64,000 bases of DNA from positions 15,075 through 79,074 of the forward strand of contig CAWCAF010000037.1 in the NCBI GenBank assembly GCA_963793385.1, read 5' to 3'. Source of the stretch: an uncultured Acidimicrobiales bacterium (GTDB lineage Bacteria > Actinomycetota > Acidimicrobiia > Acidimicrobiales > SZUA-35). The first letter of the stretch is position 1. Every line of letters begins with the position of its first letter. Made by a program: the position numbers and the translations under genes. Positions 15,935-38,747 of the stretch are shown in pieces. Below the pieces are notes generated by a model. The model saw nothing but the letters and a program-made list of their open reading frames with translations, searched no databases and was not told the origin of the DNA.

Positions 15935-17482
15935 CTACCTCAGAAACGAGGTGGCGGCATCTCGGAGGACATCACCGCCGACGTCGGGCGCGACTCCCCA
16001 GAGCAGCGTGGCTGCCACGGCGAGGACGATCGCCAGGATCGGCGCCGGTGCCATCAGGATCGGTCCGGCCCCCGCCGCATCGTCACCGTCGACCGCCGGC
16101 TGGGTCAGGTACATGCTCACGATGATCCGCAGGTAGAGATAGGCGCCGACGACCGCAGCGACCATGGCCGCTCCCGCCAGAAGGTACGATTCGCCGCGCA
16201 CCGCCGCCTCGATCACTCCGAACTTCGCCCAAAAGCCGCTGGTGAACGGGATTCCCGCCTGGGCGAACAAGAGCACGACCAGCAAACCGGCCAGGACCGG
16301 TTGGCGGCTCGACAATCCGGCATAGTCGTCCAGGCTGTGAGCGCCATCGCCGTATCGACCGACCAATGTCGCCACGCCGAACGTTCCCACCACCATGAAC
16401 GTGTAGGCGAACAGGTAGAACAGCACCGAGCGCGATCCGAGTGACGACACGGCTCGGTCGATCGACCCGGCTGAATGCAGCCCGATCAGAATGAAGCCGG
16501 CGTGACTGATCGAGGAGTACGCCAGCATCCGTTTGACGTTGTCCTGTTTGATCGCCAGAAACGACCCGATCACGATCGACAGCAACGCCATGGCGCCGAT
16601 GACCGGGCGCCAGTCGTTCCCGAGTCGACCGAACGCGGTCAGGAACACCCGAGTGAACCCGACGAACGCGCTCACCTTCACCGCCGATGCCATGAACCCG
16701 GTGATCGGTGTGGGGGCACCTTGATAGACGTCGGGAGTCCACATGTGGAAGGGAGCAGCGGACACCTTGAAGCCGAATCCGACGATGAGGAGCGCCATTC
16801 CGGCGAGCAACAAAGACGAGTCCTCGGCCGGCGTCAGTCCCCTGGCGTTGGACATGAACAGAGCGGCATCGATCTCGGACAGGCGCGTGCTCCCGGTCGC
16901 ACCGTAGATCAGCGCGATTCCGTAGAGGAAGAACGCCGACGAGAGCGCGCCGAGCACGAAGTACTTGAAGCCGGCCTCCTGGCTGTCGCGTCGGCGTAGA
17001 TGCAGCGCGGCGAGGACGTAGACCGAGATCGACAGGATCTCGAGGCCGAGAAAGGTGACGATGAGATCCTCTGCGGCGGCCATCATCAGACCGCCGGCGG
17101 CGGACAACATGACCAGCACATACCACTCGGGCCCGTCCAGTCCCTCGCGACGAAGGAAGTCGTCGAGGAACATGGCGGCGAAGAGGACCGCCAACGAAAC
17201 GATTCCGGCTGTGAACAGGAAGAAGTAGTCGAGGCTCAGAGCGCCGTCGAGGACGACGATCCTGCCACCTTCGTCCTGGACCCTGTTCCATATCCAGTAG
17301 AGCGACACGATCGAACCCACGGCCATCGTCGCGGTGTACAGCGCCGGGAAACCCCTGGTGCGCAGGCCGGGGACGAGGGACGTGAGCGTGACCAGTATCA
17401 CGGCGCCCAACGCCATCAACAGGAACGGCCACAGGAGCGACCACGGCACCTCTGGGGTGGCGATGGTCTGTCCGAGAATCAC
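15935..17482 (-). CDS. nuoN: NADH-quinone oxidoreductase subunit N (cluster 2)
   Basis: LGLEILSISVYVL, EAGFKYFVLG, FKVSAAPFHMWTPDVYQGAPTP and KRMLAYSSISHAG. Confidence 0.96.
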   Translation of the reverse strand: MILGQTIATPEVPWSLLWPFLLMALGAVILVTLTSLVPGLRTRGFPALYTATMAVGSIVSLYWIWNRVQDEGGRIVVLDGALSLDYFFLFTAGIVSLAVLFAAMFLDDFLRREGLDGPEWYVLVMLSAAGGLMMAAAEDLIVTFLGLEILSISVYVLAALHLRRRDSQEAGFKYFVLGALSSAFFLYGIALIYGATGSTRLSEIDAALFMSNARGLTPAEDSSLLLAGMALLIVGFGFKVSAAPFHMWTPDVYQGAPTPITGFMASAVKVSAFVGFTRVFLTAFGRLGNDWRPVIGAMALLSIVIGSFLAIKQDNVKRMLAYSSISHAGFILIGLHSAGSIDRAVSSLGSRSVLFYLFAYTFMVVGTFGVATLVGRYGDGAHSLDDYAGLSSRQPVLAGLLVVLLFAQAGIPFTSGFWAKFGVIEAAVRGESYLLAGAAMVAAVVGAYLYLRIIVSMYLTQPAVDGDDAAGAGPILMAPAPILAIVLAVAATLLWGVAPDVGGDVLRDAATSFLR

Positions 17483-19110
17483 TCGCCTTCCCCCCCGGCG
17501 GCTTCGGCCTCTTCTTCGGCCTCGTGGAGGGCTTCGACCAGCAGGTCACGCTGGTCCTGCTCGACGACAGGCGCCGGCTCGGGCTCTTCGAAGTCGTCGA
17601 CGTTCGCCTCGATGTGGGTGATCAGTTCGTCGACAGCAGGCTCGATCCGATCGAGTACCGGTTTCGGATACACGCCGAGGAAAACGATCAGCCCGAGCAG
17701 CGGCAGGATCGAAAGGAACTCCGAGAGGCGGAGGTCGGGCATCGCCGCATTCTCCTCGTCGGGTGTGCCGTGGAAGACCCTCTGGTAGGCCCACAGGAGG
17801 TACAAGGCAGCAAGAATCACACCGCTGGTGGCCACGATTCCCCACCATCGAGCACCGCTGAAGGCTCCCAGGAGCACCAGGAACTCGCCGACAAAACCAT
17901 TGAGGCCGGGCAGGCCGATGCTCGAGAGCATCACGAGCGTGAACACCCCTGCCATCAGCGGCGCTGCCTTCTGCAGGCCTTTCAGGGCGGCGATCTCGCG
18001 CGTGTGCCGGCGTTCGTAGATCCACCCGACGAGGATGAACAACGCTCCGGTCGAGATGCCGTGGTTGACCATCTGGAGAACCGCACCCTGGATACCCTGA
18101 CTGTTCAGCGCGAACAAACCCAGGATGATGAAACCGAGATGGGCGATCGAGGAATAGGCGATCAGCCGTTTCAGATCTCGTTGGACGGTGGCGACGATCG
18201 CCCCGTAGATGATTCCGATCACACCGAGGGTCAAGAAGACGGGGGCGAGATCATGGGCGGCCTGCGGAAACAGGTAGAGACCGAAGCGCAGGAATCCGTA
18301 GGTGCCCAGTTTCAGCATGACACCGGCCAGGATGACCGAACCAACGGTTGGAGCTTCGGTGTGGGCGTCGGGGAGCCACGTGTGCAGCGGGAACAACGGC
18401 ACCTTCACGGCGAACGCCAGGGCGAACACCAGCAGGACCGCCCGCGCTTCGTTGGTCGTGAGCGCCTGGGCGTTCGCCAGTTCCCGGATGTCGAAGGTGA
18501 CGGTGCCGGTGTGCTGGTTGGTCAGGAAGACGACTGCGATAATGCCCACGAGCATGAGCGCCGAACCCGCCATCGTGTACAGGAAGAACTTCAGCGCTGC
18601 CCTGACACGGTCCCCGTGTCCCCAGGATCCGATCAGGAAGTACATCGGGACGAGCACGATCTCGAAGAACATGAAGAAGAGCAGCAGGTCCAGCGCCATG
18701 AACACGCCCGATCGAGCCCGCCATCAGCACCATGATCCAGAGGTGGTACGGCTTGGCGTCGTGATCGGCGCTGGTCGCCAGGATTCCGATCGGGAACAGC
18801 ACGCCCGTCATGACCACGAGGAACAACGAGATCCCGTCCACCCCGAGCCGTAGTGAGAGACCGAGATCAGCGATCCAGTCACGTTCGACGACGAACTGGA
18901 ATCCGCCATCAGCGGTCTGAAAATCGGCGAGCAGATAGATCGACAGGGCCCCGGTGATCGTCGACCCGACGAGCGCGACGATCCGGGCATACTCATCGCG
19001 CTCGGCGGGCATCAGGCCGATCACCGACCGCTGTCAGCAGTGGGACGAGCACGAGCGCCGGCGAGCAGCGGGAAGGAGACGGCTTCGGCAGCCTCGGCGG
19101 CGAAGATCAT
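17479..19110 (-). CDS. nuoM: NADH-quinone oxidoreductase subunit M (cluster 2); frameshifted 5' part
   Basis: LGVDGISL, FFEIVLVPMYFLIG, KVPLFPLHTWLPDAHTEAPT and GLPGLNGFVGE. ATG 19110 overlaps the nuoL stop. Confidence 0.93.
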
Positions 19111-21487
19111 GACGTCCACAACCGGGACAGGAACCAGAGCGACCACGCCCACCGAACCGATCACGATGCCCAGGGCCGAGTTCCTCACGTAGCCGGTCTG
19201 TGTGCCTCGCAGCGAGCCCCCGATCGACCCCAGCCGCAGCGGCCACGCCGTTGACGAAACCGTCGATCACCCGACGGTCGAACAAGCGCGGTCAGTTCGA
19301 AGCCGCGTGCGCCCGGACCTCCCGCCACTCGGGCGTAGGTCTCGTCCACGTACCAGGCACGGGCCAGGGCCGGACCGCTCGATCAGAGCCGGGGCGACCC
19401 TGCCCCGCAGGTACACCGCCGTGGCCGCCCCGATCGCACCGACGGCACTAACGATGGCTATCACCGCCAAACCCCATTTGCCAGCACTCGAAACCGCCAG
19501 TTTCGCTTCGTTTCCGAACAGACTGGGCTCGAGCCAGTGCTCCAGGAAGTGCAAATCTTTGGTGAAGGGCAGGTTGAGACCGCCGGCGACGGCTGCGGCA
19601 CCGGCCAGCATCAACAGCGGGAGGGTCATCGTCCACGGTGATTCGTGAGGATGGTATTCCTGCCGCTCGGCAAACGACGCTGGTAGATCATCGGCCAGAT
19701 CACCCGCCTCCGGCGGTGCCGACACGGCCGTGACGTAGGTGGGGGGCAAGGGCAGGTCCGCCCGCCGGGCCCGTAGCGCCTGGAACGCGGCTTTGGCCTC
19801 GGCCAGCCGTTCAGAGGATCGGTCGACCTCGGCGTTGGCCTCGGCCACAGAACTCTGTGCCTTGCTCAAGGTCTCCCCGGCCTTGGGTACGCCCTTCTCC
19901 GCCTTCTCCAATGCCTTGGCGAGCTTGGCGTGGGCGTCATCCTCGGAGCTGACCGCCGCCAGAGCCGCTTTGGCATCGTTCAGCTTGGTGGCTGCGATCT
20001 CGACCGCTTCGGTCCTCTTGTCGACGTCTGCCACGGCTTTCTCCACGCCCGCATGGGCTGCGACCAGCTCATCCTGAGCCTGCTGTGCCGCGGTCTCCGA
20101 CTGGCCGAGGCGGGCGTCGAATGCGGCGGTGATCTCTTCGGCGGTCGGGTCGAAGTAGCGGGTCCGTCCGAAGAAGGTGAGGATCACCTGTCGAGTCATG
20201 TAGAACGCAGTGAGGACGGCGGTCACGAGGCCGATCGCCCACAAGGCCACGTTCTCGTTCCAGGCGTAGAGCAGGATCTCGTCCTTGCTCCAGAAACCGG
20301 AGAAGGGCGGAACCCCGGCGATGGCGAGCCAGCCGACGATGAAGGTCATCGCAGTGATCGGCATCAGCTTGGCGAGCCCACCCATCCGGCGCATGTCCTG
20401 TTCGTCGTCGAGGCCGTGGATCACCGATCCCGAGCCGAGGAACAACAGGGCTTTGAAGAATGCGTGGGTGACCATGTGAAAGATCGCCGGGACGTACGCG
20501 CCGACGCCAACGGCCAGGAACATGTAGCCGAGTTGCGACACCGTCGAATAGGCGAGCACCTTCTTGATGTCGTTCTGAGCCAAGGCGATCGTTGCAGCAA
20601 ACAGGGCGGTGAGAACGCCGATCCACGCCACGATGTCGGTCGCCCAACCGTCGGCTACGGCCAGGACGGGGTTCATCCTCGTGAGCAGATAGACACCCGA
20701 GGTGACCATCGTGGCGGCATGGATGAGTGCTGACACCGGTGTCGGACCGGCCATGGCGTCGGGCAACCACACGTAGAGAGGCAGCTGAGCGGACTTGCCA
20801 ACAGCTCCCAACAGCAGCAGGAGGACGATCGCGGTCGCAGCGCCGGAGCTGAGTTCGGGCGCCGAGGACAGGATCGTGCCGTAATCGATCGAACCGATCT
20901 CGGAGAACACGAGGAACATGGCCAGCATGAAACCGAAGTCGCCGACCCGGTTGGTGACGAACGCCTTCTTGCCCGCTGATGCGTTGGCCGCGTCGGTGAA
21001 CCAGAACGAGATCAGAAGATAGGAGCAGGCCCCGACGCCCTCCCATCCGAGGAAGGTCATCAGCATGTTGTCGCCCAGGACGAGCACGAGCATGGAGCCG
21101 GCAAAGAGGTTCAGATACAAGAAGAATTTGGAGAAGTCCGGATCGCCGTGCATGTAGCCGATCGAGTAGAGGTGAATGAGCGCACCTACACCGGTGATGA
21201 ACAACGACATTGTGATGGAGAGCGGGTCGGCGAGCAGCCCCGCATTCACCGAAAACGAGCCCGCCGGTACCCATTCGAACAGGGTCTGGACGTAGAACCG
21301 TTCGCCTGGTGTCCTCGGCGAGAAGCCCGGCGAAGACGGCGACGGTGGCGAGGAAACTCACGCCGATCGCACCAAAGGCCAGCCACCCGGTCAGCGGCTC
21401 ACCGAGGCGTCGTCCAACGACAACGATGAGGAGGAATCCGATCAGCGGAGCAGCGGGAATGAGCCAGGTGAGTTCGACCATGGTCAT
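19107..21487 (-). CDS. nuoL: NADH-quinone oxidoreductase subunit L (cluster 2) with a large helical insertion; frameshifted
   Basis: GWEGVGACSY, KAFVTNRVGD, KSAQLPLYVWLPDAMAGPTPVSALIHAATMV, GFWSKDEIL and HESPWTMTLPL. Confidence 0.94.
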
Positions 21488-21789
21488 CCCTTGAGCGCGG
21501 CGACGTCGTCGGCGGTGGCGTGGGGGCTGCGGCGCATGACGGCCACCACGATCGACAGGCCGACCACGACCTCGGCGGCGGCGACCACGAGCACGAAGAA
21601 CACGGCGGTCTGGCCGGCGAGATCGCTCAGGCTGTAGGAGAAGGTGACAAAGGAGATGTTCACCGCATTCAGCATCAGCTCGATGCACATGAACATGACG
21701 AGTGGGTTCCGGCGGACCAATAGTCCAACCGCGCCGATGGAGAACAACAGAGCACTCAGAACCAGGTACCAGGTCTCAGTGAGTTCCAC
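21484..21789 (-). CDS. nuoK: NADH-quinone oxidoreductase subunit K (cluster 2)
   Basis: VRRNPLVMFMCIELMLNAVN...VAAAEVVVGL. Confidence 0.96.
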   Translation of the reverse strand: MELTETWYLVLSALLFSIGAVGLLVRRNPLVMFMCIELMLNAVNISFVTFSYSLSDLAGQTAVFFVLVVAAAEVVVGLSIVVAVMRRSPHATADDVAALKG

Positions 21790-21828
21790 TAGTTCTCAAC
21801 CCTCCCCTGCGATCACGACGGGGCAACG

Positions 21829-22408
21829 TTATTCGACCGAGAGGCCGGGTTCGTCGATGACCAGATCCTCGGCGCCACGGTTGTGGACCAACACCACCGC
21901 TCCCACGGTGGCGATCGTCAGCAACAGCGCAGTCGCTTGGAACGCCAGAATGTTACGGCTGAACAGGTCTTCTCCCAACTGCTCGATTTGACTTCGACCG
22001 TCGATCGGCTGCACCACCGATTCCTGCCCGGTCAGCGCCACCGCACCTTCGTCGCCTCCGGGCCCCGACAGGAACAGGCCACCGAGGCTGAGGGCGAGGA
22101 GGAGACCGCCGAACACGAGCCCGAGAGCAGCGCTGGCCGACGAGCGGGTCGACCCGCAGGTTCTCCGATGTGTCCACGCCGAGGAGCATGATGACGAAGA
22201 GGAACAAGACGACGATGGCGCCGGCGTACACCACCACCTGTACGAGGGCCAGGAAGTGCGCCTCCTGAATGATGAAGACGACGGCGACCCCGAAGAACGA
22301 TGCGATCAGGCTCAACGCGGCGTGGACCGGATTGGACGAAACGATCACGCCGAGCGCACCGCCGAGAACGATGGCGCCGGCGACGAGGAACACGATGACG
22401 TCAACCAT
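21829..22408 (-). CDS. nuoJ: NADH-quinone oxidoreductase subunit J (cluster 2); frameshifted
   Basis: SSNPVHAALSL, QVVVYAGAIVVLFLFVIMLLG and LLLTIATVGAVVL. Confidence 0.92.
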
Positions 22409-23106
22409 CAGTGGTGACCCCCGTTCTCGCTCGTCGTCGTGTCCGTGGGCCGATCGAGGCTCGATGCTCGATGCGTCCTTGTCGGCCTGTGGCAGATCGC
22501 CGGAGCGAACGCCGTAGCCCAGCTCGCCGCTCCAACTCGGTGTCGCCCAGGTAGCTCGCCCGGCCCGACGGCGACGTGGCCCGCATCCAGCCGGAGGTGT
22601 CTCGATCATCTCCTTCTCGCCAGTCCTCCCAAGGGCAGGTTCTGGGGTCGCCCGTCGTCGCCGACCAGCAGTTCGTCCTTGGTGTAGATCGCGTCGTTGC
22701 GGTTGGTGAAGGAGAACTCGAAGAGCTTGGTCTCGGTGATCGCCTCGGTGGGGCACGCTTCGACGCACAGATCGCAGTGAATGCACCGGAGGTAGTTGAT
22801 CTCGTAGACGAATCCGTAGCGTTCGCCGGGGCTCTTGGGCTCGTCGGCGGGGTTGTCCTTGCCTCGGACGTAGATGCAGCGGGCCGGACAGACCCCGGCA
22901 CACAGCTCACACCCGATGCACTTCTCCATGCCGTCCTCGTACCGGTTGAGAACATGTCGACCGTGGAGACGCTCGGGTTTGGGGCTCTTCTGGTCCTTGT
23001 CGGAGATGTGGCCCTTTCGATCGGTGCGGCCGCCGCGGTATTCCTTGGTCGTCACGCCTTCGCCCCACTTCTTCAGCGTGACGGCGAAACCTTCGAAATA
23101 GCCCAT
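22408..23106 (-). CDS. nuoI: NADH-quinone oxidoreductase subunit I (cluster 2); frameshifted 3' part
   Basis: HGRHVLNRYEDGMEKCIGCELCAGVCPA and RCIHCDLCVEACPT. Confidence 0.94.
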
Positions 23107-24357
23107 CAGCCGACCTCCCGGGGATCGAGTCCGGCGGCGAGGAGTCTCTCCCGCCGAGCATTGTTCAATGCGGCCCGCAGGAACCCCATGCCCACGAGGA
23201 GCACGACGAAGGACACCGCGATCACGAGCACCGTGTCGCCGCCGGCGCTGTCGAGGAGGTCGAGCTCACCGTTCCGGGCCACTCGAATACCGGCGAGGAC
23301 GAGCAGCCAGCCGAGTGACAGCGGGATCAGGAGCTTCCAGCCGAGATCCATCAGCTGGTCGTAGCGGAAAGCGGGGCAGCGTGGCCCGGAACCACACGAA
23401 GACGAACAGGAAGACCAGCAGCTTGGCGAAGAACCACACGAAACCCCACAACCACCCGGGCAGGATCCCGAGGTTCGGACCGGCCGGACCACCGAGGAAC
23501 AACGTGACGATGATCGCAGCCATCGTGACCGTGTTCATGAACTCGCTCAGGAAGAACAGGGCGAAACGGATGCCCGAATACTCGGTGTGGAAGCCACCGA
23601 CCAAGCTCCTGTTCGGCTTCGACGAGGTCGAACGGAGGTCGGTTCAGCTCGGCGGTCCCGGCCATGACGAAGACGGCGAACGGGATGAATCCGGTCACGA
23701 TGATGTTCCAGTTCGGAATGATGCCGCCGAAACCCGCGGTGGCCTGTTCACGCACGATCTCGGTCATGCTCAGAGCCGCCGGTGACGAGGATGACCGCGG
23801 CCAGGGACAGCCCGAGGGCCGCCTCGTAACTGATCGCCTGGGCCGAGGCTCGAACCGATCCGAGCAGCGGGTACTTCGAACCCGGACGACCACCCCGCCA
23901 GCATGATGCCGTAGATGCCGAGCGAACTCATCGCCAGGAAGAACAGGACGCCCACGGGCGGGTCGGCGACCTGCAGGAACGTCTCCTGACCGCCGGGCAG
24001 CGTGACCGTGCCCGATTTCCCGTCGCTGAAGTCACCACCGAGAGGGATGAGGGTGAACGTGAGGAACGCCGGCAGCAACGACAGGTACGGCGCCAACTTG
24101 AAGACGAACCGATCGGCGTTCTCGGGGATGTTGTCCTCTTTGAAGAACGCCTTGATGCCGTCGGCGAGCGTCTGCAGGATACCGAAGGGACCCGCGACGT
24201 TCGGACCGATCCGGTTCTGAAGGCGGGCGACGACCTTGCGTTCGAACCAGACCATCAGCATCGTGGCGACCAGGCAGACGACCAGAGCGATGATCGCTTT
24301 GACGGTCGACAGAACGACGTCACCCAGCGTCACACCGTCGAGCAGGTAGGGATCCAT
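23106..24357 (-). CDS. nuoH: NADH-quinone oxidoreductase subunit H (cluster 2); frameshifted
   Basis: [55 protein letters not shown] and RYDQLM. Confidence 0.93.
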
Positions 24358-28919: not shown

Positions 28920-28935
28920 GGTGCACCTCGGCCAC

Positions 28936-30276
28936 TCATCTGTCGACCTCCCCCATGATCGGGTCGACGCTGGAGATCGATGCGACCGCGTCGGCGACGA
29001 GACCGTCGGCCATCTTGTGGGGCAGGCATTGCAGGTTCACCAGGCTGGGGGCCCGGATGTGCATCCGGTACGGCGTCGGCGATCCATCGCTGACCAGGTA
29101 GCAGCCGAGTTCACCACGGGGCGATTCGACGGCGACGTACACCTCCCCCTCGGGCACTTTGAAGCCCTCGGTGAAGATCTTGAAGTGATGGATCAACGCC
29201 TCCATGGACTCGTCGATCCGGGCTCGCGGCGGCGGGGTCACCTTGGTGTCTTGAACCCGGTAATCGCCCGACGGCATCTTGTCCAGGATCTGCCGAACGA
29301 TCCTCATCGACTCACGAATCTCGTTGAGGCGGATGGCGTAGCAGTCGTAGGAGTCACCACAGGTCCCGACCAGAACGTCGAAGTCGACTTCGTCGTAGGC
29401 CAGGTACGGCTCGTCGCGTCGGATGTCACGTGCGATGCCGGTCGACCGCAGCAGCGGCCCGGTCACCGAGAGGGCGAGCGCCTCGTCGGCTGCGAGAACG
29501 CCGACGCCCTGCAGACGCTCCCGCCAGATCGGTTGGCCACTCATTAGGATGTCGTATTCAGCGAGCCGAGGCGGGAGCATGTCGAGCAGAAACAGCACAT
29601 CATCGCGCCAGCCGTCGGGAAGGTCGGCAGCCACACCACCGGGGCGGATGTAGTTGTGATTCATTCTCAGGCCGGTCACCTTCTCGAGGAACCTCAGCAC
29701 CTGTTCGCGTTCTCGCCACCCGTAGATCATCATGGACACTGCGCCGAGATCCATGCCATTGGTGGCCATGAACAACAGATGCGAGGCGATGCGGTTGATC
29801 TCGCTCATCAGCATTCGAATCCATGTGGCTCGCGGTGGGATGTCGACCTCGAGAAGCTTCTCGGTGGCGAGCGAGAAGACCAGCTCGTTGAACAGCGGTG
29901 AGGCGTAGTCCATCCGGGTCACGTTGGTGCCGCCCTGAAGAAAGGTCAGTGACTCCCCCGTCTTCTCCATTCCTGTATGGAGGTACCCGATAACCGGTTT
30001 GGACCGACGCACGGTTTCGCCGTCCATTTCCAACATCAGCCGGAGCACACCGTGGGTACTCGGGTGTGAGGGCCCCATGTTGACGAGCATCGTCTGTTCG
30101 TTTTCGTCGTCCAGTGGGGCATCCGCCAACTCCGCCGCCTGGACTTCGCTCATTCGAAGCACCGCATGCCTGCGGGGAAGACGATCGAGTTGACCACCTT
30201 CAGGGTCCGGCGTCCTGGTGGCGTGGACGATCGGCGATGCCTCATCGGATTCGATTTGTTCGGGGGTGACGGTCAT
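28936..30276 (-). CDS. nuoD: NADH-quinone oxidoreductase subunit D (cluster 2)
   Basis: NMGPSHPSTHGVLRL, GYLHTGMEK, TRMDY, ESPRGELG and MGEVDR. Confidence 0.96.
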   Translation of the reverse strand: MTVTPEQIESDEASPIVHATRTPDPEGGQLDRLPRRHAVLRMSEVQAAELADAPLDDENEQTMLVNMGPSHPSTHGVLRLMLEMDGETVRRSKPVIGYLHTGMEKTGESLTFLQGGTNVTRMDYASPLFNELVFSLATEKLLEVDIPPRATWIRMLMSEINRIASHLLFMATNGMDLGAVSMMIYGWREREQVLRFLEKVTGLRMNHNYIRPGGVAADLPDGWRDDVLFLLDMLPPRLAEYDILMSGQPIWRERLQGVGVLAADEALALSVTGPLLRSTGIARDIRRDEPYLAYDEVDFDVLVGTCGDSYDCYAIRLNEIRESMRIVRQILDKMPSGDYRVQDTKVTPPPRARIDESMEALIHHFKIFTEGFKVPEGEVYVAVESPRGELGCYLVSDGSPTPYRMHIRAPSLVNLQCLPHKMADGLVADAVASISSVDPIMGEVDR

Positions 30277-30800
30277 CGTTGTCCACCTCCTTGTGGGGCC
30301 TTGAACTGCACCGGGATGACCCCTTGGGCAAAGTCCTTGCGCAAGGGATGGCCGACCCAATCCTCGGGCATCAGGATACGACTGAGATCCGGGTGGCCTT
30401 CGAACACGATGCCGAACATGTCGAAGGTCTCGCGTTCCTGATAGTCACAGCCGGGGTAGATCGCGTAGAGCGAATCGATCCGCGGATCTGCGGCCGGCAC
30501 CTGGGCCCGCATGCGAATCCGCTCACCGGTGTCGAAACGGACGAACGACGCCACTACCTCGTACCTCCCGGGCGTCACACCCGCCGGCAGCTGTCGGGCC
30601 GGCTCGTAGGTGAGGAAATCGACCGCGGTGAGATCGGTGATCATCGTCCAGTTGTCAGCGAAGAGTGCCTCGGCGGTGGACCGCCAAGATTCGCGATCGG
30701 GGTGCAGCACCTGCTGGCCACGGCTGTGGGTCAGTGGTGCGCCGTAGCGGGTCGATGACTCCTCGTCGATCTGCGCATCGGTGTCGATGGCGTCGGTCAT
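30273..30800 (-). CDS. nuoC: NADH-quinone oxidoreductase subunit C (cluster 2)
   Basis: DLTAVD and [35 protein letters not shown]. Confidence 0.96.
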
Positions 30801-31384
30801 CGGCCCCGCCGCCCGATCGTCACCAGCTCCGACGCCCCCTGGCCGTCGAGTTGTTCGACGGTGATCCCGCCCACACCGGCCTTGCGGCGACGGAGCAGCT
30901 CACCGTTCTCAATGCTCTGATGCAGCGTATTGATGGCGTGCAGCAGCGTCTCGGGACCCGGCGGGCAGCCCGGCGCGTAGACGTCGACCGGAACGACCTG
31001 ATCGACACCTTGGACGATCGCGTAGTTGTTGAACATGCCGCCGCTTGATGCGCACACACCCATCGAGATCACCCACTTGGGCTCGGCCATCTGGTCGTAG
31101 ATCTGCCGAAGGACCGGGGCCATCTTCTGGCTCACCCGTCCGGCGACGATCATCACATCGGCCTGTCGAGGCGACGCCCGGAAGACCTCCATCCCCAGGC
31201 GGGCCATGTCGTAGTGCGACCCTCCGGTTGCCATCATCTCGATCGCGCAGCACGCCAGGCCGAAGGTGGCGGGCCACAACGATCGAGCCCTGCTCCAGTT
31301 GACCAGTTTCTCGAGCGGGGCGGTGAGCACGTTGTGGTCCAGGCCTTCGATCCCGTGGTCCTGGACCTCCCTGATGACGCCCAT
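30797..31384 (-). CDS. nuoB: NADH-quinone oxidoreductase subunit B (cluster 2)
   Basis: [35 protein letters not shown] and PGCPPGPE. Confidence 0.96.
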
Positions 31385-31915
31385 CAGTGCTCTCCCCCGG
31401 CCATCGCCGGTTCCAGGTCAGCGACCGGACTCTCAGCGAGACCATCGGCGGCCATTGGGCCGAGCCGGCCCTCGGTTCCGACCCGTCGAACGGTCGATGC
31501 CGACGTTGCGTTGGGGATCGATCGCGGTGTCGGCCGCCGAGCGATACGAGGTGACCTGAAGCGGTCCCCAGTCCAGCGCACCCTTGGAGATGAGGTACAC
31601 GAAACTCTCGAACACCAGGGCCGAGAAGACGACGATGGCGATCAATCCGAATCGACCGAGCGCCTCCTGGGTGACCGCATACGGGTAGAGGAAGATGATC
31701 TCGATGTCGAAGATCACGAACATCATCGCCACTAGATAGAAGCGAACCGGGAAACGTTGCGGAGGTTCTCGACCGGGGATGATGCCGCACTCGTACGGTG
31801 CCATCTTCTCCCGGGTCGGCCGGCGGGGCGCCAGGAGTCGCGAGGCGGTGAAACTCCCGGCGGCGAAAACGATACCCAGGACCAACAGCGCCAGAACAGG
31901 TAGGTACTGACTCAT
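31384..31915 (-). CDS. nuoA: NADH-quinone oxidoreductase subunit A (cluster 2) with C-terminal extension; probable frameshift in the tail
   Basis: [21 protein letters not shown] and KGALDW; GAGGAG RBS. The shifted-frame stop overlaps the nuoB ATG at 31384. Confidence 0.93.
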
Positions 31916-31948
31916 CGGTTCGACTCCTCGGTGACGTTGGCGTGGGTT

Positions 31949-32866
31949 CTAGGTTGCAGCTGCTCGGATTGCCATCTCCCGACGATCACGGATGTGCATC
32001 AAATAGACACAGATAGCGAAGAGAATGGCGTTGAAGATCGTAAACGCAAGCGGCACGAATCGCGTGCCACTGATGATCCAGGGGATCGGACCACCACGGT
32101 CACGGGCCACGACAGCGGTGACGACCGGTGCGTTCTCGTCGACGATCGGGATCGGCGGCGCCTGCCCGGGCAGGGTCGGCTGTGGTTGCACCGCCTGCAC
32201 TTGGATGGCCACCAGCTCCTCGCCGTGCCACGGGACGAGAATCGACTCGGCCTTCTTGACGAACCGTTCGACGACGCTGTCCCCGGTTTCGCCGGCCGGT
32301 TTGCCACCGTAGGCAAACCCACCGAATTGCAGCGGGATGTACTCGGTCGGGGCCTCGAAGACCCCTTCCTCGATCAGGAATTCTTCCGCCGACGATTGGG
32401 CATCGCCGCGGCGGGAGCTCGATGTGATGAGGTACTCCCATCCAGCGAGTCGATCAGAATTATCGTCGGCGAAAGACTGTGCATTCACTTGGCGCTGATC
32501 GGCATCCTCGCCCTGCACGCCGGAGAAGAAATCGTTCTGGGGGCCGAGTGCGCTACCCAGGTCGGCCACATTCGGGTCCTCGGCGAACTCGAGGTCACCG
32601 GTGTTGATCTCATCGAGCTCCCATGATTGGGCCTCGCCGACCCAGCCGATCCCGTAGACGGTCCAGACGATGCCCATGAGCATCATCCAGCCGAACAGGG
32701 CGGACGCAGCGATCAAGCCGCCGGTCCGGGAACCGGAATTGGTGGCGACGATCAGGTAGGTGCCGCCGATCATCACGACGACGCCGACCAGAACCGACAG
32801 GAGCCCTCGGAAGAAGATGTTGAAGTCGAGGCCGCCGATGAAGGCGACGATGGCTACCGAACTCAT
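31949..32866 (-). CDS. Hypothetical membrane protein (two N-terminal TM helices, acidic soluble domain, C-terminal TM), last gene of the Rieske/cyt b cluster
   Basis: Intact 305-aa ORF with an ATGA overlap to the upstream cytochrome c gene and a clear hydrophobicity pattern. Confidence 0.8.
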   Translation of the reverse strand: MSSVAIVAFIGGLDFNIFFRGLLSVLVGVVVMIGGTYLIVATNSGSRTGGLIAASALFGWMMLMGIVWTVYGIGWVGEAQSWELDEINTGDLEFAEDPNVADLGSALGPQNDFFSGVQGEDADQRQVNAQSFADDNSDRLAGWEYLITSSSRRGDAQSSAEEFLIEEGVFEAPTEYIPLQFGGFAYGGKPAGETGDSVVERFVKKAESILVPWHGEELVAIQVQAVQPQPTLPGQAPPIPIVDENAPVVTAVVARDRGGPIPWIISGTRFVPLAFTIFNAILFAICVYLMHIRDRREMAIRAAAT

Positions 32867-34434
32867 CGCTGCTCGATCCCTTCACGCTCGTAGTCCACCA
32901 CGGCCTGGATGAGGTCTGGCGGGAGTAGCTTTCCGAACCCGGGCATCATGCCGGCGCCGCTGAGGCCGCCACGACCGTAGCCCTCGCCGGCATTGGCACC
33001 GTTGACGATGAACTCGTAGTGAGACTTGCTCGTTCGGTCGGGCATGGCGATGACCGTGCAACCGGCCCCCAACCGTCCATCGGTCAGCCTGATCGTCTCG
33101 CCGGCAAACTCGCCGGAGAGATCGCCGATCGTCAACTCGGGTGGATCGACGAAACCATCGGTCACCCGCTCGACCTCACCTTCGGCGGCAAGCACGAGGG
33201 GTACACGCGGGTCGAATGGATACGCGTCGGCCGGGATTCCGCCCGGTTCCCACAGATCGCTGTAGTAGAGGCAATCGGCGAGATCGCCACCCTCGACGAT
33301 GCTGTACTCCAGGAGTTCTCCGCTCGCATCGGTCCTGGCGGTGACCGGGTTCCCCCGGTCGTCGAGAGGAATCTCGGTGCCGTTCATAGCCAGGACGAAA
33401 TCGACCCCCTCGCCCAGCGATGGATCGAGCCATTCACCGTCGGGACGTTTCCACGTGTCATCGGGGAAACGCTCCCTGATCCCACCACAGAGGCTGAAAC
33501 CGATGCCACTGGGACTGCCACCGCCGCATGCGGCAACCCCTTCGTCGAGGATCCCGGGCACGGTGGCGACACCGAGCGACCATCCGGCGGTGTGGCAACG
33601 ACCGCAGCTGAGCGAACCGGCCTGATAGCCGCTGAAGAGACCGAGGTTGAACACCGCTTCACCGACCGAATCGAACTCACCGTCGTCGATGGACCGCTGA
33701 ACTTCTTCCCGAATGCTCGCCGTGACGGTGTCGGCTTCCTCCTGGGCGGCGACGGACTCGGCGTCGAAGAAGTCGAGTTCGTCACCGGCCGCTTGGATAT
33801 CGAGAGGATCGAGGCTCTGGACCTGGAACGTGTCGAGATAGGCGATGAGGTACTCGATCTGCTGTGTGGTGAGCGGACCGCCGCCGGGTGTACCCCACGC
33901 GGCCATCGGTGACCCGGGCCTGCCGTAATTCAGTACGTAGGTCACCTCTTCGGCGCTGTAACGGTGCAGGACGTTGTTCAGCGCTGGCGCCACCCAGGAG
34001 GCATTGGCCAGGAACTGACCATCGGCGTCCTGATAGACGTAGGCGGCGACACCGCCGACGCCAGCGCCACCGTGGCAGTTCACGCATTGGGCACCACCGG
34101 TGTAGAGGTTGGCGCCGCGACGGACGAAGGTCTCCTCCTTGACCTCGAGAGCCCCATCCTGCCGTCCCGGTTCGGCGAGCCAGTAGAAAGGAAGGATCAC
34201 TGCGGTGATGGTGAGAATCCCGAGGGCGAAGGTCAACGAGCGATCGAGTTTGGTGGTCTCGAGTTCCTCGTCGGAGAGGTAGGGGGCACGGTTGGCCGCC
34301 AGCTCGACTTCGGAGCCGAGTTCGTCCTTGGCGGTGAAGACGTTCCGTAGGAACAGTGCAACGAACGCGATGAAGACCACGGTGGCCGTGATCAGACCTA
34401 TGGCTCGGAAATCGGCTGCGAACAACAGGGTCAT
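32863..34434 (-). CDS. Membrane-anchored diheme c-type cytochrome
   Basis: Two CxxCH motifs (CVNCH, CGRCH), candidate Met ligands (GSPMAAW, GMMPGF) and two N-terminal TM helices. Confidence 0.88.
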   Translation of the reverse strand: MTLLFAADFRAIGLITATVVFIAFVALFLRNVFTAKDELGSEVELAANRAPYLSDEELETTKLDRSLTFALGILTITAVILPFYWLAEPGRQDGALEVKEETFVRRGANLYTGGAQCVNCHGGAGVGGVAAYVYQDADGQFLANASWVAPALNNVLHRYSAEEVTYVLNYGRPGSPMAAWGTPGGGPLTTQQIEYLIAYLDTFQVQSLDPLDIQAAGDELDFFDAESVAAQEEADTVTASIREEVQRSIDDGEFDSVGEAVFNLGLFSGYQAGSLSCGRCHTAGWSLGVATVPGILDEGVAACGGGSPSGIGFSLCGGIRERFPDDTWKRPDGEWLDPSLGEGVDFVLAMNGTEIPLDDRGNPVTARTDASGELLEYSIVEGGDLADCLYYSDLWEPGGIPADAYPFDPRVPLVLAAEGEVERVTDGFVDPPELTIGDLSGEFAGETIRLTDGRLGAGCTVIAMPDRTSKSHYEFIVNGANAGEGYGRGGLSGAGMMPGFGKLLPPDLIQAVVDYEREGIEQR

Positions 34435-35304
34435 GAGTGCTCCTCAGCTCCGCTGATGCAGTTCGGACCCTCGGCTTCCTGACCGGTTGTGTTGGTTCCG
34501 ATCGGCGGACCCTGGATGACCGTGCCGGTGTCGACGATCAGTTCGTTGCTCGCACTCACCTCCATCGGGAAGCGATCCATACCTCGGGGCGCCGGCCCAC
34601 CCTTCTTCTCTCCGACCCGGTTGTACTGGGACCCGTGGCAGGGACACTCGAACCATTGCGACGTCAAGCACTCCGGGACGCGGCACCCGAGGTGCGGGCA
34701 GGTCTGGTACAGCGCCGTGACGCCTGCTGCCAGGCCCTGTTCGACCTGGCCGAAGAAGCCGTACTGCGTCCTCGCTTTCTCCAGCGCTGCCGCGGGGTAC
34801 TCGGCGACCCACATCCGACCCTCGGGAACGTAGAGGAATCCACCACCGGCGATGATGCCAGCCCTGATATCCGGAAGGCGTCCCGACCGTGACCTTGGAG
34901 CCGAACCCGCTGACTCCCTGAGGCCAAAGGAATCCGATGGATGCCGCCCCGAACGCCGTGATACCAAGGCCGAACATGGCAAAGATCCCACGGTTCAGGA
35001 ACTGGCGGCGTGCGACGCCGACGGTCTCGGGGTCCGGCGGCACATACGGCACGGGGGGTTTGGTGTCGGCAGCCACCAGCGCCGCCCTGCCCCTCGCCGA
35101 TCCGAGGGCCTCCAGCTCCGAACCGGTAGCCGGCGCACTCGTGTCGACATCCGGCGTCGGCACCGTGACGGGTCGATCCCGCTTGACGGTTTCGCCGGAG
35201 AGCTGTCCGATGGCGGTCGTGGTGTCACGATTGCGAAGGGCCAGGCCCAGCGACGCCACAGCCAGCACGGCTACGACGATTGCTCCGATGATGATGGGAT
35301 CCAT
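34431..35304 (-). CDS. petC: Rieske iron-sulfur subunit of the Rieske/cytochrome b complex; frameshift near 34880
   Basis: CPHLGC and CPCHGSQY boxes, GPAPRGMDRF and an internal twin-arginine RRQFL-TM segment. Confidence 0.92.
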
Positions 35305-35317
35305 AGCTAGCTCCTTC

Positions 35318-36076
35318 CTAGAGCTCGAAGAACAGGCCGTCAGCCCACGGGAAAATGAAGTTGAATCCGGGGCCCCGGAAGAACGATCCGATCAAGACCA
35401 GAACCGCCCAGAACATCATGAAGATCGTGAAGATCGACACTGCAAACTTCCGGTCCTCGGGGCGGTTCGAGGGGTTCTTGTCGATGAATGGTGCGAGGAT
35501 CAGGACGATCAGCCCGATCCCGGGGATGGTCACACCGGCCACCATCGGGTGAAACATCGTGAGGAGTTCTTGTAGGCCGAGGAAGTACCACGGCGCTTTG
35601 GAGGGGTTCGGCGTCTGGTTCACGTTGGCCAGCTCGAGAAGCGGAGCGTTGACGAAGATCGAGAAGATCGTCAGGAACGCCGTGCAGAACAACGCGGCGC
35701 CGAACTCCACGACGATCAGGTGAGGCCACGTGTGGACCTTGTCCTGCGGCTTCATCTTGATGTCCTGAATCGAGCCGCTCTTCACCACGGTCAAAAGACG
35801 CTGGGTGTGGCCCTGAGGTCCTGACATCACCGGTAATCCACCCGTCACAGCGGCGGCTGCGACGGCGGTTGCCGCCGGTGCGACAGCGGTGGTGGTCCCG
35901 CCACCGCTGTCCTTGGACTTAGCGCTCTTGGAACGCTCGAGGAGGTGAGCGGGAATCTTGGACTCGCCTGCTGAACCGCCCGACGACGCCGGCGCGTCAT
36001 CACCGGAGGGCGAGGACTCGGCCTTCTTCTTCGCCTCGCTTGCCCGCTTGCGTAGATGCTCTGGAATCTCGGTCAT
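35318..36076 (-). CDS. petD: Cytochrome b C-terminal subunit (subunit IV/PetD-like) with low-complexity N-terminal extension
   Basis: TWPHLI, APLLELAN..TPNPSKAPWYFLGLQELL, PFIDKNPS..PEDRK and three TM helices. Confidence 0.88.
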   Translation of the reverse strand: MTEIPEHLRKRASEAKKKAESSPSGDDAPASSGGSAGESKIPAHLLERSKSAKSKDSGGGTTTAVAPAATAVAAAAVTGGLPVMSGPQGHTQRLLTVVKSGSIQDIKMKPQDKVHTWPHLIVVEFGAALFCTAFLTIFSIFVNAPLLELANVNQTPNPSKAPWYFLGLQELLTMFHPMVAGVTIPGIGLIVLILAPFIDKNPSNRPEDRKFAVSIFTIFMMFWAVLVLIGSFFRGPGFNFIFPWADGLFFEL

Positions 36077-36091
36077 CAGGGTGTCCCTTCT

Positions 36092-36883
36092 CTACAGCGG
36101 TCCGGAGATGCCGCCGTCCTTGCGCACCCGCCAGAAGTGGATCGCAAGGAAGATGACGGTGACGAATGGAAGGAGGAGGACGTGCAGCACGTACCAACGC
36201 AACAGCGTTTCACGGCCGATCACAGAACCGCCCAGGAGCACGAACCGGACCTCGTTGCCGAACACCGGCGTGTAGCCCATCATGTTTGTGCCGACGGTCA
36301 CAGCCCACAGCGCCAGCTGGTCCCAGGGAAGCAGGTAGCCGGTGAAGGACAGCAGGAGGGTGAACTGCAAGAGCATCACCCCGATCACCCAGTTGAACTC
36401 ACGAGGAGGTTTGTAAGCGCCGTGGTAGAAGACGCGGGCCATGTGGAGGAAGACCGACAGCACCATGAGGTGAGCACCCCACCGATGCATGTTCCGCACC
36501 AGGAGACCGAACGTGACCCCGGTCTGGAGGGTGGAGATGTCCTCCCACGCCGCGGCCGCGGTTGGGCGATAGAAGAACATCAAGAAGATGCCAGTGATCG
36601 TGAGGATGATGAACAGGAAGAAGCTGAGCCCGCCGAGGCACAGCGTGTAGCTCACCTTCACCGCATGTCGTTTCACCTTCACCGGGTGCAGGTGGTAGAG
36701 CACGCTGTTCATGATCACGTAGCTGCGGTTTCGAGGGCTGTCCGTGTAGCCCTTGCGGAAAACCGAACCGGGCCGGAAGATCGAGTTCCACGCCTGGCTC
36801 CCCTGGACCGCGCTCGTGGTCTGGCTTGCGAGATCACCCGCTCTCTCGGCGAGTGTGGGCTTGTCTTGGATCGATTTCGCCAT
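36092..36883 (-). CDS. petB: Cytochrome b6-like N-terminal subunit
   Basis: YTLCLGG, heme His pairs in HRWGAHLMVLSVFLH and LHVLLLPFVTVIFLAIH, GYLLPWDQLALWA, and C-terminal RKDGGISGPL. Confidence 0.93.
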   Translation of the reverse strand: MAKSIQDKPTLAERAGDLASQTTSAVQGSQAWNSIFRPGSVFRKGYTDSPRNRSYVIMNSVLYHLHPVKVKRHAVKVSYTLCLGGLSFFLFIILTITGIFLMFFYRPTAAAAWEDISTLQTGVTFGLLVRNMHRWGAHLMVLSVFLHMARVFYHGAYKPPREFNWVIGVMLLQFTLLLSFTGYLLPWDQLALWAVTVGTNMMGYTPVFGNEVRFVLLGGSVIGRETLLRWYVLHVLLLPFVTVIFLAIHFWRVRKDGGISGPL

Positions 36884-36918
36884 TGTTCGTTGGGACCTTC
36901 TCGTCAGGGATTTCTGGT

Positions 36919-37335
36919 TCAGGCGAGGCGCATGCCGTAGCCGTAGCCGTGGGAATTGGTTCGCTGGTTGTAATCGCCGTAGGGCGAAGGATCACTGATC
37001 TTTCCGAGGATGATGACACCGGTCGGGCACCGGTCGACGCACAGCGCACATCGGGTGCAAACATCGTCGTCGATGGTGAAGATGAATGCATCATTGGGGT
37101 CATCACCCGGTTTGACCGTTCCAAATGCTTCGGCGACAGCGCCGGTGGGCTGCATGTGGATGCACTTCCACGGGCAGATGTCGACACAACCCTCGCAGGC
37201 GATGCACTCGGACTGATCGATGTGGATGAACTGTTTGGGTTTGACGGCGCGAGCCAGATAGTCGGCATCGACCTCGACGAGCACGTAGTCATCGCGAAAG
37301 TCCGGAAGCGGCGGGTTGGCGTCCTGGAAACCCAT
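36919..37335 (-). CDS. 2x[4Fe-4S] ferredoxin-like protein
   Basis: CIACEGCVDICP and CTRCALCVDRCP; no signal peptide. Confidence 0.92.
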   Translation of the reverse strand: MGFQDANPPLPDFRDDYVLVEVDADYLARAVKPKQFIHIDQSECIACEGCVDICPWKCIHMQPTGAVAEAFGTVKPGDDPNDAFIFTIDDDVCTRCALCVDRCPTGVIILGKISDPSPYGDYNQRTNSHGYGYGMRLA

Positions 37336-37342
37336 CGATCCT

Positions 37343-37786
37343 TCAGCCCCGCTTCACCAGGGGTCGGCCGTAGCTGGAGGTCGGCACCACGTCGCTGCCC
37401 TTCTTGGCCTGACCACGGTTCTGCCAGTCGATGAACATCTTGACCATGATGCCAAGGCCGATGATATAGATGATCGCCGCGACGCTGTCCGAGACGGCGC
37501 GCAAGGTGATGTCGAACGGGAACCATCCGCCCTGGCTCTGGGGGACCATCAGGCCCCAGGCGTCGAAGATCCGGTCGGCCCGGAAACTCCATTCGTTCTC
37601 GGCGACGGTCAACCACTGATGGGGAACGACGCCGAAGATCATGAAGGTGAGGAAGAAGATGTACACCGAGCCGATCATCGCCTCGCCCCAGGTGACGGGA
37701 GTGCCGGTGGGACGGCGGGCGGCGTAGAGATACACCAGGCCCGCCAGGAAGATCGTGACGATGGTGGATGTTATGAGTGCAACCAT
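37343..37786 (-). CDS. Hypothetical three-TM membrane protein
   Basis: 147-aa ORF with GAGG RBS and three hydrophobic segments, 7 bp from the ferredoxin gene. Confidence 0.8.
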   Translation of the reverse strand: MVALITSTIVTIFLAGLVYLYAARRPTGTPVTWGEAMIGSVYIFFLTFMIFGVVPHQWLTVAENEWSFRADRIFDAWGLMVPQSQGGWFPFDITLRAVSDSVAAIIYIIGLGIMVKMFIDWQNRGQAKKGSDVVPTSSYGRPLVKRG

Positions 37787-37818
37787 GCGCTACCTCGACG
37801 ATTCGTGTCTCGTCGACA

Positions 37819-37848
37819 ATTCTAGAGACTTTGTGAATCTATGCACAA
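37819..37848 (-). promoter_or_regulatory. Putative SigA-type promoter (-35 TTGTGC, 18 bp spacer, -10 TAGAAT) overlapped by a Rex/CRP-like palindrome
   Basis: 37831-37848 reads TTGTGAA-TCTA-TGCACAA, one mismatch to the Rex consensus TTGTGAA-N4-TTCACAA. The minus-strand TAGAAT is at 37824-37819. Confidence 0.72.
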
Positions 37849-37885
37849 GCTATCGGATTGGGTGGTCGGGTGGAGAAATCGTAGG

Positions 37886-38740
37886 TCACTCGCTGGCGAC
37901 CTCTTCTGAGTCGGCGTGCGGACCCGGGCAGCTCTCCGGGTCCTCGGGGGCACCGGTGGCGCCCGGCGTGTACAGCGGATCGGCGCACGCCAGGAGGAAC
38001 TCGAGGTCGATCGGGCGGTCGGGGAGGACGCCCTCGGCCACTTCGCGCATGTGTTCCATCCACTCCTGGTAGGCCGGATCTGTGGTGTCTTCGCCACCGA
38101 GGGTCGCCCGCTCGTGGAACACGATCAGCTCGAGTTCGTTCTGTGTGATACCCGGATAGTTCGGCATCACGCCACGATTGCCGGCGACCCGTGCACCACC
38201 GGCACGATCCGGATCGCCGTACTGTTCACCGGTGATCGCAGCAGACCCCCGAGCGATGTGGACGATCTGATCGATCGGCGAGGGGAAGGTGGCATAGATC
38301 TCACCGTTGGAGAACTGGTAGCCGACGCCGCCACCACCGCCGACCCCGTGGCAACCCGCACACCCCTGCGAGCTGTACAACGCTGCCGATTCGATGAACA
38401 GGGGATCCTCGACCTCGGGCTGTTGCATCGTGCCGGCGAAGCTGTACGCCCAGAGAAGGGTCAAGGCCGGAATCGCCATCGCCCACATCGGCATCTTCTT
38501 GCGCTTCTTAGCCGCCTGCACGTAGGCCGGTTCCGGTTTCGGCGGTTCGGGGTCGGGGTCCCGCGGGACGACCGCGGCCGCCTCCCGGATCGCCGGCGGC
38601 TCGGCAGGTCCCGCCGCCTGGGCCGGAGCAACCGCGGTGCCCGGCTCCTTTGCCGCCTCACCTCCACCGTCGCCATCGGCGGGCTTCTTGCCGCGACGGG
38701 AAGCGGACCGCTTGAGCAGATGCTCGGGGATCTCAGTCAC
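37886..38740 (-). CDS. Membrane-anchored monoheme cytochrome c with cytoplasmic low-complexity N-terminus
   Basis: KKRKK followed by a TM helix (MPMWAMAIPALTLLWAYSF), then CAGCH and GVMPNY. Confidence 0.88.
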   Translation of the reverse strand: MTEIPEHLLKRSASRRGKKPADGDGGGEAAKEPGTAVAPAQAAGPAEPPAIREAAAVVPRDPDPEPPKPEPAYVQAAKKRKKMPMWAMAIPALTLLWAYSFAGTMQQPEVEDPLFIESAALYSSQGCAGCHGVGGGGGVGYQFSNGEIYATFPSPIDQIVHIARGSAAITGEQYGDPDRAGGARVAGNRGVMPNYPGITQNELELIVFHERATLGGEDTTDPAYQEWMEHMREVAEGVLPDRPIDLEFLLACADPLYTPGATGAPEDPESCPGPHADSEEVASE

Positions 38741-38747
38741 GGCCGAG

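Follow-up and report, generated by a model that had tools for sequence, protein, structure and literature searches.

What does a ferredoxin-like protein do in the Rieske/cytochrome b complex of a non-photosynthetic bacterium? Electron exchange between ferredoxin and the extra haem of b6-type complexes has been debated since the b6f structures (PMC5600118). The question is raised here by a 64,000-nucleotide (nt) stretch of DNA (the window) belonging to contig C37 of a 38-contig, 2.64 Mb metagenome-assembled genome of an Acidimicrobiales bacterium (GenBank GCA_963793385.1), for which completeness is estimated at 55.7%. On the minus strand of this window lies a module of seven genes encoding, in order, a small membrane protein, a 2x[4Fe-4S] ferredoxin-like protein, a b6-type cytochrome b, subunit IV, a Rieske protein, a dihaem cytochrome c and a second membrane protein, with the genes of complex I (nuo) behind it.

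The ferredoxin-like protein and its counterpart in sister clusters

We surveyed twenty 20-kb loci of the same order (6 from the same genus, 8 from other genera of the family and 6 from other families) and 40 further loci, of which 20 come from other orders of Acidimicrobiia and 20 from other classes. The module is conserved in all 60 related loci, up to contig ends, and its gene order holds in 20/20 loci of the order as far as the contigs reach. The initial annotation had staked its reading in advance on the ferredoxin being conserved in homologous clusters, and it is: the gene stands immediately upstream of cytochrome b in all 20 loci of the order and in all 40 further loci. Subunit IV and Rieske genes follow cytochrome b in 38/38 further loci that continue, and a homologue of the dihaem cytochrome c comes directly after the Rieske gene in 20/20 loci of the order and 37/38 further loci.

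The ferredoxin gene (36919-37335, minus strand) encodes a protein of 138 amino acids (aa) without signal peptide and with two CxxCxxCxxxCP motifs. Only Fer4 families match it, and no domain binding flavin adenine dinucleotide (FAD) or nicotinamide adenine dinucleotide (phosphate) (NAD(P)) was detected. The eight cluster cysteines do not vary among 59 sequences. Identity across the order is 64-99% for the ferredoxin, on par with the catalytic subunits, and 28-93% for the last membrane protein of the module. Homologues are present in 134 of the 151 sampled Acidimicrobiia genomes (E <= 1e-20) and in 105 of 251 sampled Actinomycetota genomes (E <= 1e-15), the latter count including 9 unpublished genomes (96/242 without them).

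By sequence, the ferredoxin is similar to bound dicluster units, its nearest solved relatives being the polyferredoxins FwdF and MvhB, followed by the HdrA insert and NuoI; an AlphaFold2 model with a predicted local distance difference test (pLDDT) value of 71 gave the same ranking with modest TM-scores. Fusion artefacts aside, the nearest longer relatives are proteins of 583-615 aa named 'glutamate synthase beta subunit-like' or 'formate dehydrogenase beta subunit'. The ferredoxin matches the last ~80 residues of these proteins (46% identity over 81 residues), and the match takes in a stretch of ~30 residues inserted between the cluster motifs. From N- to C-terminus, the longer proteins carry Fer4_20, Pyr_redox_2 and a Fer4 dicluster domain, and a profile comparison of the ferredoxin with this last domain by hhalign returned a probability of 98.5%.

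For one such oxidoreductase-like protein, 80 metagenome loci were gathered. In 40 of them its gene lies directly upstream of genes for cytochrome b, subunit IV, Rieske protein and cytochrome c, an arrangement found in every locus of at least 5 kb in the 65-94% identity group that continues past the oxidoreductase-like gene; in a more distant group, the oxidoreductase gene is followed by those for Rieske, cytochrome b and subunit IV. The cytochrome b of these oxidoreductase-type loci is b6-type and 49-57% identical to that of the window. The profile of the small membrane protein matches 41 open reading frames (ORFs) in these loci, 41/41 of them directly upstream of the oxidoreductase-like gene and none elsewhere. 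Paralogous clusters of the oxidoreductase type taken from the Acidimicrobiales genomes G002, G003, G012 and G019 have the same arrangement in 4/4 cases, and these genomes carry the ferredoxin-type module too. Because the ferredoxin and the dicluster domain are homologous and occupy the same gene slot, with the small membrane protein upstream in both, the two cluster types share one architecture and differ in whether the iron-sulfur subunit has a flavin/NAD(P) module. By these comparisons, the ferredoxin is the free-standing equivalent of the dicluster domain at the C-terminus of the FAD/NAD(P) oxidoreductase-like subunit, a relationship that is new here.

As separate observations on one of these genomes, the paralogous cluster of G002 (C5:1430000-1449999) encodes a 610-aa FAD/NAD(P) oxidoreductase-like subunit, with another COX1 homologue and an ORF distantly resembling cytochrome b 4-6 kb away.

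A b6-type complex with a dihaem cytochrome c

Cytochrome b of the module is split into separate Cytochrome_B and Cytochrom_B_C ORFs placed 15 nt apart on the minus strand: the N-part (36092-36883; 263 aa, four helices; Pfam Cytochrome_B, 2.4e-45) and subunit IV (35318-36076; 252 aa; Pfam Cytochrom_B_C). The motifs that the initial annotation had read in the N-part were all found, namely Cys82 of YTLCLGG (encoded at 36638-36640), 14 residues between the helix-D histidines H234 and H249, and a GISGPL end; the helix-B histidines H133 and H147 have 13 residues between them. These b6-type traits extend well beyond the window, with the CLGG haem-cn motif kept in 60/60 orthologues and the four histidines and a GISGPL-type end conserved in 58 sequences. 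The split after helix D, the helix-D spacing, CxGG and the GISGPL end are shared with cytochrome b6f and with the b6c complexes of Firmicutes and heliobacteria, and the closest solved sequences in PDB are cytochromes b6 (3e-47), relative to ~7e-24 for mycobacterial QcrB. With the NCBIfam model bc1_QcrB_actin, the N-part reaches 118 bits, below the cut-off of 500. The NCBIfam ExtP model is matched at 304.9 bits (cut-off 290); identity with Geobacter ExtP, a selenite/tellurite cytochrome, was considered and rejected, the match indicating the same broad clade only. The ext cluster is described without a ferredoxin (PMC5877670).

In contrast to cytochrome b6, the window's cytochrome b carries a conserved 48-residue N-terminal extension. 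Within residues 1-73 (36665-36883), R37-P-G-S40 and Y63-H-L-H-P67...K71-R-H73 are invariant in 58 sequences, and the three invariant histidines of the extension are on the cytoplasmic side. Subunit IV has a long cytoplasmic N-terminal tail and, at the Qo site, APWY in place of the PEWY or PDWY of b6f and b6c; none of the 57 sequences compared departs from K160-A161-P162-W163-Y164 or from E124. The latter residue, immediately ahead of the first helix, may correspond to the glutamate ligand of haem cn in Firmicutes.

The Rieske gene (34431-35304, minus strand) encodes an N-terminal transmembrane (TM) helix, the motif RRQFL and the cluster-binding boxes CPHLGC...CPCHGSQY, with the Pfam Rieske match on its C-terminal frame. 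Box II reads CPCHGSxY in 57/58 loci, and its Ser/Tyr pair has been linked to high potential (PMC12954380). The following gene, for a membrane-anchored dihaem cytochrome c of 523 aa with CVNCH and CGRCH (32863-34434, minus strand; Pfam Cytochrome_CBB3 and Cytochrom_C), replaces the cytochrome f of b6f: no protein matched a cytochrome f family in a search that covered the cluster, and the dihaem cytochrome c is of class-I type. A further difference from b6f and b6c is the presence of three extra conserved genes in the Acidimicrobiales cluster.

The initial annotation had contrasted this complex with the usual actinobacterial qcrCAB, as if it were out of place. It is not; the layout is ordinary for the lineage and represents the standard complex III of the class. 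Kao and Hunte (2014) already catalogued the split cytochrome b pair of Ilumatobacter coccineum (Acidimicrobidae) with those of Rubrobacter, Conexibacter and Patulibacter, and placed these split cytochromes b partly in an 'APWY clade' of which, by their account, no member has been characterised (PMC4122944). That clade has in common with the window the split cytochrome b, APWY for PEWY in subunit IV and the haem-ci cysteine motif; the ferredoxin gene, the two orphan membrane proteins and the nuo linkage of the Acidimicrobiales module are not mentioned in the main text of that catalogue (PMC4122944). In the open literature, taken without subscription papers or supplements, we found no paper describing these last three features.

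Comparison with the QcrCAB (bcc) complex of actinomycetes, which forms a III2IV2 supercomplex, gave likenesses of a general kind, i.e., presumed menaquinol oxidation, a dihaem cytochrome c as Rieske acceptor and a Rieske protein with an extra N-terminal TM helix. QcrB, however, is unsplit at ~540 aa and far more distant, as the PDB and bc1_QcrB_actin values given above show, and the module has no cta linkage in relatives.

Another parallel is with anammox bacteria. Their Kuste4569-4574 and Kustd1480-1485 complexes include a cytoplasmic NAD(P) oxidoreductase subunit in a Rieske/cytochrome b complex, as reported (PMC12954380; PMC5600118), and published AlphaFold3 models set a [4Fe-4S] chain beside haem bn/cn on the cytoplasmic side (PMC12954380). 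Subunits of the NAD(P) oxidoreductase type have also been reported for 'subfamily G' (PMC5600118). The anammox complexes as described and the module have in common a b6-like four-helix cytochrome b with subunit IV, the Ser/Tyr pair of the Rieske protein, an iron-sulfur subunit of the negative side encoded in the cluster (here the ferredoxin gene, 35 nt upstream of cytochrome b) and a dicluster unit that is FwdF-like both in that account (PMC12954380) and in our searches, a likeness to the Kuenenia complexes that runs via uncultured relatives. They differ in that the window encodes a 138-aa dicluster unit only, without an FAD or NAD(P) domain; that its cytochrome c is dihaem (two CxxCH), not hexa- or octahaem; and that its host is an aerobic-type heterotroph with complex I. 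The ferredoxin subunit is an undescribed variant on a known type of complex.

Linkage to complex I and a Rex-type box

All 14 complex I genes, nuoA to nuoN, follow in order on the minus strand from 31915 down to 15935, with Pfam and NCBIfam matches for A to N. Every gene named in the initial annotation, from a monohaem cytochrome c at the head to nuoN at the end, is present on that strand and in the order given there. The same annotation described the whole series as co-directional with short gaps. This stands for the strand and for the 33 nt before nuoA, and it fails at the monohaem cytochrome c, after which a 99-nt spacer with an operator-like palindrome intervenes; in gene order from that spacer, the intervals are 99 nt (cytochrome c to the 3-TM small membrane protein), 7, 35, 15 and 13 nt, two 4-nt overlaps and 33 nt to nuoA. 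In the surveyed loci of the order, nuoA comes directly after the module in 19/19 that reach that far, and nuoA-N directly after the module is found only in Acidimicrobiia.

The 33-nt spacer before nuoA contains GAGGAG, and no Rex-like site with <=3 mismatches was found at this junction. No terminator-like hairpin was found on the coding strand between 30500 and 39500. No sigma-70-like promoter was found in that interval either, which has little meaning for a high-GC actinobacterium. Three metatranscriptome contig sets returned only conserved nuoB/nuoA stretches from other organisms, none of which bridges the module/nuoA junction. Co-transcription of the module with nuo is plausible.

The palindrome in the 99-nt spacer, TTGTGAATCTATGCACAA (37831-37848), has one mismatch to TTGTGAAnnnnTTCACAA, which we take to be the Rex operator consensus. 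A Rex box with <=2 mismatches occurs in the 300 nt ahead of the first module gene in 16/19 loci of the order, and 22 of the only 32 Rex-like sites of this quality in 1.04 Mb of loci are upstream sites. The genome also has a rex homologue, a PF06971 match on contig C34. Since a conserved Rex box heads the block and a rex homologue is present, the module and nuo are likely to share NADH-responsive control in this order. In the Rex regulon of Actinobacteria, Rex operators stand upstream of nuo and cyd. The window resembles that regulon in having both the operator-like palindrome and the rex gene, and differs in that the box heads the complex III module, not nuoA.

The position of the Rex box also places the monohaem cytochrome c outside the unit formed by the module and nuo. 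Its gene (37886-38740, minus strand; membrane-anchored, 284 aa, CAGCH; Pfam Cytochrom_C) is co-oriented with the module only in the 6 same-genus loci, and lies on the opposite strand in 13/14 others, the last being at a contig end. The gene is a conserved neighbour of the module and probably a separate transcription unit.

A candidate electron port on the cytoplasmic face

In the genome, menD scored above cut-off, which indicates the classical menaquinone pathway, and the futalosine marker MqnA was found in 0/5 genomes searched. Searches of this genome, and of most relatives, turned up no more than one cytochrome b locus: an orthologue of cytochrome b (>=80% identity) is present in 38/41 genomes, and a long QcrB-like gene in 9/41. 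The module, with the sole cytochrome b locus found, would be the cell's menaquinol:cytochrome c oxidoreductase, with electrons passing from the Rieske protein to the dihaem cytochrome c and on to an oxidase encoded elsewhere. COX1 lies >200 kb from the module in the relatives G002, G007 and G030, where there is no cta linkage.

The ferredoxin-like protein would be a bound subunit on the cytoplasmic face of this complex and not a free carrier. Its counterpart in sister complexes, those of anammox bacteria among them, would be the dicluster domain through which the negative-side haems are connected to the FAD/NAD(P) module. The ferredoxin's kinship with that domain makes an electron port on the cytoplasmic side a reasonable reading; as a stand-alone dicluster domain, it would form that port between haem bn/cn and a cytoplasmic partner. 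Flow could run in either of two directions, with low-potential electrons entering the quinone-reduction site or with the port serving as an outlet for the low-potential chain. In this order, the module and nuo would probably be transcribed and Rex-regulated together. Taken as a whole, we consider this explanation, i.e., a menaquinol:cytochrome c oxidoreductase with a bound ferredoxin port, co-regulated nuo genes and assembly errors as the source of the broken frames described below, to be a probable one, at some distance from certainty.

Several observations weigh against it. The Rex box is absent from the 16 loci examined of other Acidimicrobiia orders (0/16) and occurs in 6/20 loci of other classes. 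In other Acidimicrobiia orders, nuoA is downstream on the same strand within ~9 kb in 9/20 loci, divergent upstream in 2/20 and absent from the fetched stretch in 9/20; in other classes nuo linkage was seen in 0/20 loci, 4 of which end at contig ends. In three same-genus genomes (L015, L016 and L029), ~2.8 kb between nuoD and nuoE (L015:11520-14361) contain two antisense genes, for an AbiEi-like regulator and an M20 peptidase, so that one long transcript is not universal even here. No COX1 was found in this genome, and since the assembly is 55.7% complete, both this and the finding of only one cytochrome b locus are weak for this genome. The placement of the ferredoxin in the complex is presumed from genes and sequence comparison, and proteins joining Fer4 to cytochrome b are singletons with out-of-frame stretches in 4/5 inspected.

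Natural ferredoxin-cytochrome b fusions had been considered as evidence and were rejected, the first alignments having run through stop codons. Separately, the 407-aa metagenome protein P0033, encoded on a single Actinomarina-like contig, continues without a break from the ferredoxin part to the cytochrome b part, which may reflect either a genuine fusion or a wrong base where the stop codon should be. A complex prediction that set the ferredoxin as partner to cytochrome b, subunit IV and the 3-TM membrane protein, each with its own alignment, gave a median of 0.31 relative to a mark of 0.32, and one control reached 0.39; we take this neither for nor against a bound subunit.

The Ser/Tyr Rieske protein and menaquinone leave open room for a strongly reducing low-potential branch, as has been argued for anammox. 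That the complex is a bifurcating or two-entry enzyme is unlikely in our estimate. If it bifurcates, oxidation of menaquinol with a Rieske protein of the high-potential type would make the low-potential branch reducing enough to load the dicluster subunit, and an aerobic actinobacterium would make low-potential reductant straight from the quinol pool. If the direction is reversed, electrons would reach the quinone pool by way of haem cn from ferredoxin reduced by 2-oxoacid oxidoreductases, and the long-debated ferredoxin:quinone reductase activity of b6-type complexes would be hard-wired as a subunit. Were the two-entry reading true, its expression would be tied to that of complex I by one NADH-sensing switch.

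The ferredoxin, perhaps together with the small membrane protein, might instead be a maturation or assembly factor that acts in covalent attachment of haem cn on the cytoplasmic side or in insertion of an iron-sulfur cluster. Such a role would suit the close coupling of its gene to that of a cytochrome b in which the haem-cn cysteine is never missing (60/60), and both proteins fall outside characterised families. In the sister clusters, however, the homologous sequence is one domain within a large protein resembling FAD/NAD(P) enzymes and encoded at the same position, which suits electron transfer better; the closest solved relatives are polyferredoxins that serve as electron wires and bound subunits of the NuoI/PscB type, and the ferredoxin is conserved at the level of catalytic subunits. 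We regard the maturation factor as distinctly unlikely.

The initial annotation had suggested that the complex may exchange electrons with cytoplasmic ferredoxin at haem ci, in cyclic flow or bifurcation, and may associate physically with complex I; in its fuller form, this would mean a soluble ferredoxin and a supercomplex. Consistent with this are the nuo adjacency in 19/19 loci of the order, with its 33-nt gap and no terminator-like site, the single operator at the head of the block, and the conserved gene for a dicluster protein beside a cytochrome b of the haem-cn type. That adjacency is lineage-specific, though, being confined to Acidimicrobiia (0/20 loci of other classes with the same module), and it is interrupted in the three same-genus genomes; respiratory genes that are syntenic under one regulator require no physical contact, and the sequences show no sign of a contact surface for Nuo subunits. 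The proposed physical association with complex I has synteny as its basis; a complex I-III supercomplex is unsupported, and the combined account with a soluble ferredoxin is in our judgement improbable.

A non-photosynthetic lineage that has cultured members, and that always has a dicluster protein encoded at the position taken by a full NAD(P) oxidoreductase in sister complexes, offers a simple system in which the ferredoxin-haem idea could be tested. Acidimicrobiia are abundant in the sea, lakes, soil and wastewater, and the occurrence of the ferredoxin in most of their sampled genomes (134/151) makes the b6-type module the main complex III of a large group, in which three conserved module genes are still annotated as 'hypothetical'. 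The nuo link and the Rex-type box suggest joint control of two respiratory steps.

Single extra bases in this assembly

The cluster genes are not all open in this assembly, which the initial annotation overlooked. Compared to G008, a genome of the same genus that is 92% identical over 19.7 kb, 14 single extra bases lie inside cluster genes between 21311 and 34885, and the rate of extra bases is ~1 per kb over window positions 20375-52723 (e.g., 21311, 23775, 28613, 34885, 45056 and 52315). The insertions break the frames of nuoL, nuoJ, nuoH (three frames), nuoG, nuoE, the tail of nuoA and the Rieske gene (at 34885); the Rieske protein is split over two frames, and its halves join in one frame in 20 relatives. 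Insertions at 22544 and 22636 fall at the nuoI/nuoJ boundary, where nuoI (22606-23106) still gives a near-complete NuoI match, and nuoM is likewise spread over two frames. At least 8 of the 14 nuo genes are in broken frames, and nuoN, K, F, D, C and B are the only complex I genes that appear uninterrupted.

Extra bases of this type are also present at 45056 and 50755-52723, in unrelated genes, and menD, on contig C38, is likewise split. Because the relatives are intact and the same insertions are present outside the cluster, the frame breaks are most likely assembly errors and not decay, and extra bases probably explain the completeness estimate of 55.7%. Genuine decay of the cluster into pseudogenes, to which the at least 15 frame breaks across ~23 kb of this assembly might point, is highly improbable, given that the proteins within each frame are 90-100% identical to those of G008, that every break is a single extra base, that unrelated window genes and menD on another contig show the same pattern, and that a completeness of 55.7% in an assembly of 2.6 Mb is consistent with marker genes being broken throughout.

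In another part of the window (48329-48560), two near-identical blocks ~128 nt apart share one set of indels relative to G008, which points to a short tandem duplication or repeat.

Orphan membrane proteins and neighbouring features

The small membrane protein at the head of the module (37343-37786, minus strand; 147 aa, 3 TM helices) and the membrane protein at its end (31949-32866, minus strand; 305 aa, terminal TM helices and a folded middle domain) are both orphan families with no Pfam or NCBIfam match, and Atlas searches with each returned only unnamed actinobacterial hypothetical clusters. Homologues of the 3-TM protein are found directly upstream of the ferredoxin in 35 Acidimicrobiia loci (by tblastn) and in 20 loci of other classes (by position). 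W33 and P55 are invariant in the family alignment of 54 sequences, which includes that of the window. The 3-TM protein is probably a subunit. The AlphaFold2 model of the 305-aa protein has a pLDDT of 87; with it, Foldseek found no fold at E <= 0.001 and VIA-align matched only helical hairpins (Z <= 8.8).

Upstream of the monohaem cytochrome c, the ORF at 38733-41159 encodes a zinc-protease-like motif, HEIGHGLGF, and a fibronectin type III domain, with its C-terminal third out of frame at an extra base (39465). Finally, the sequence MTEIPEHL(L/R)KR opens both subunit IV (36040-36076) and the monohaem cytochrome c (38704-38740). A six-frame scan of the whole genome found it at only those two sites, and at the N-terminus of subunit IV it is conserved across Acidimicrobiia; it may be a shared cytoplasmic docking motif.

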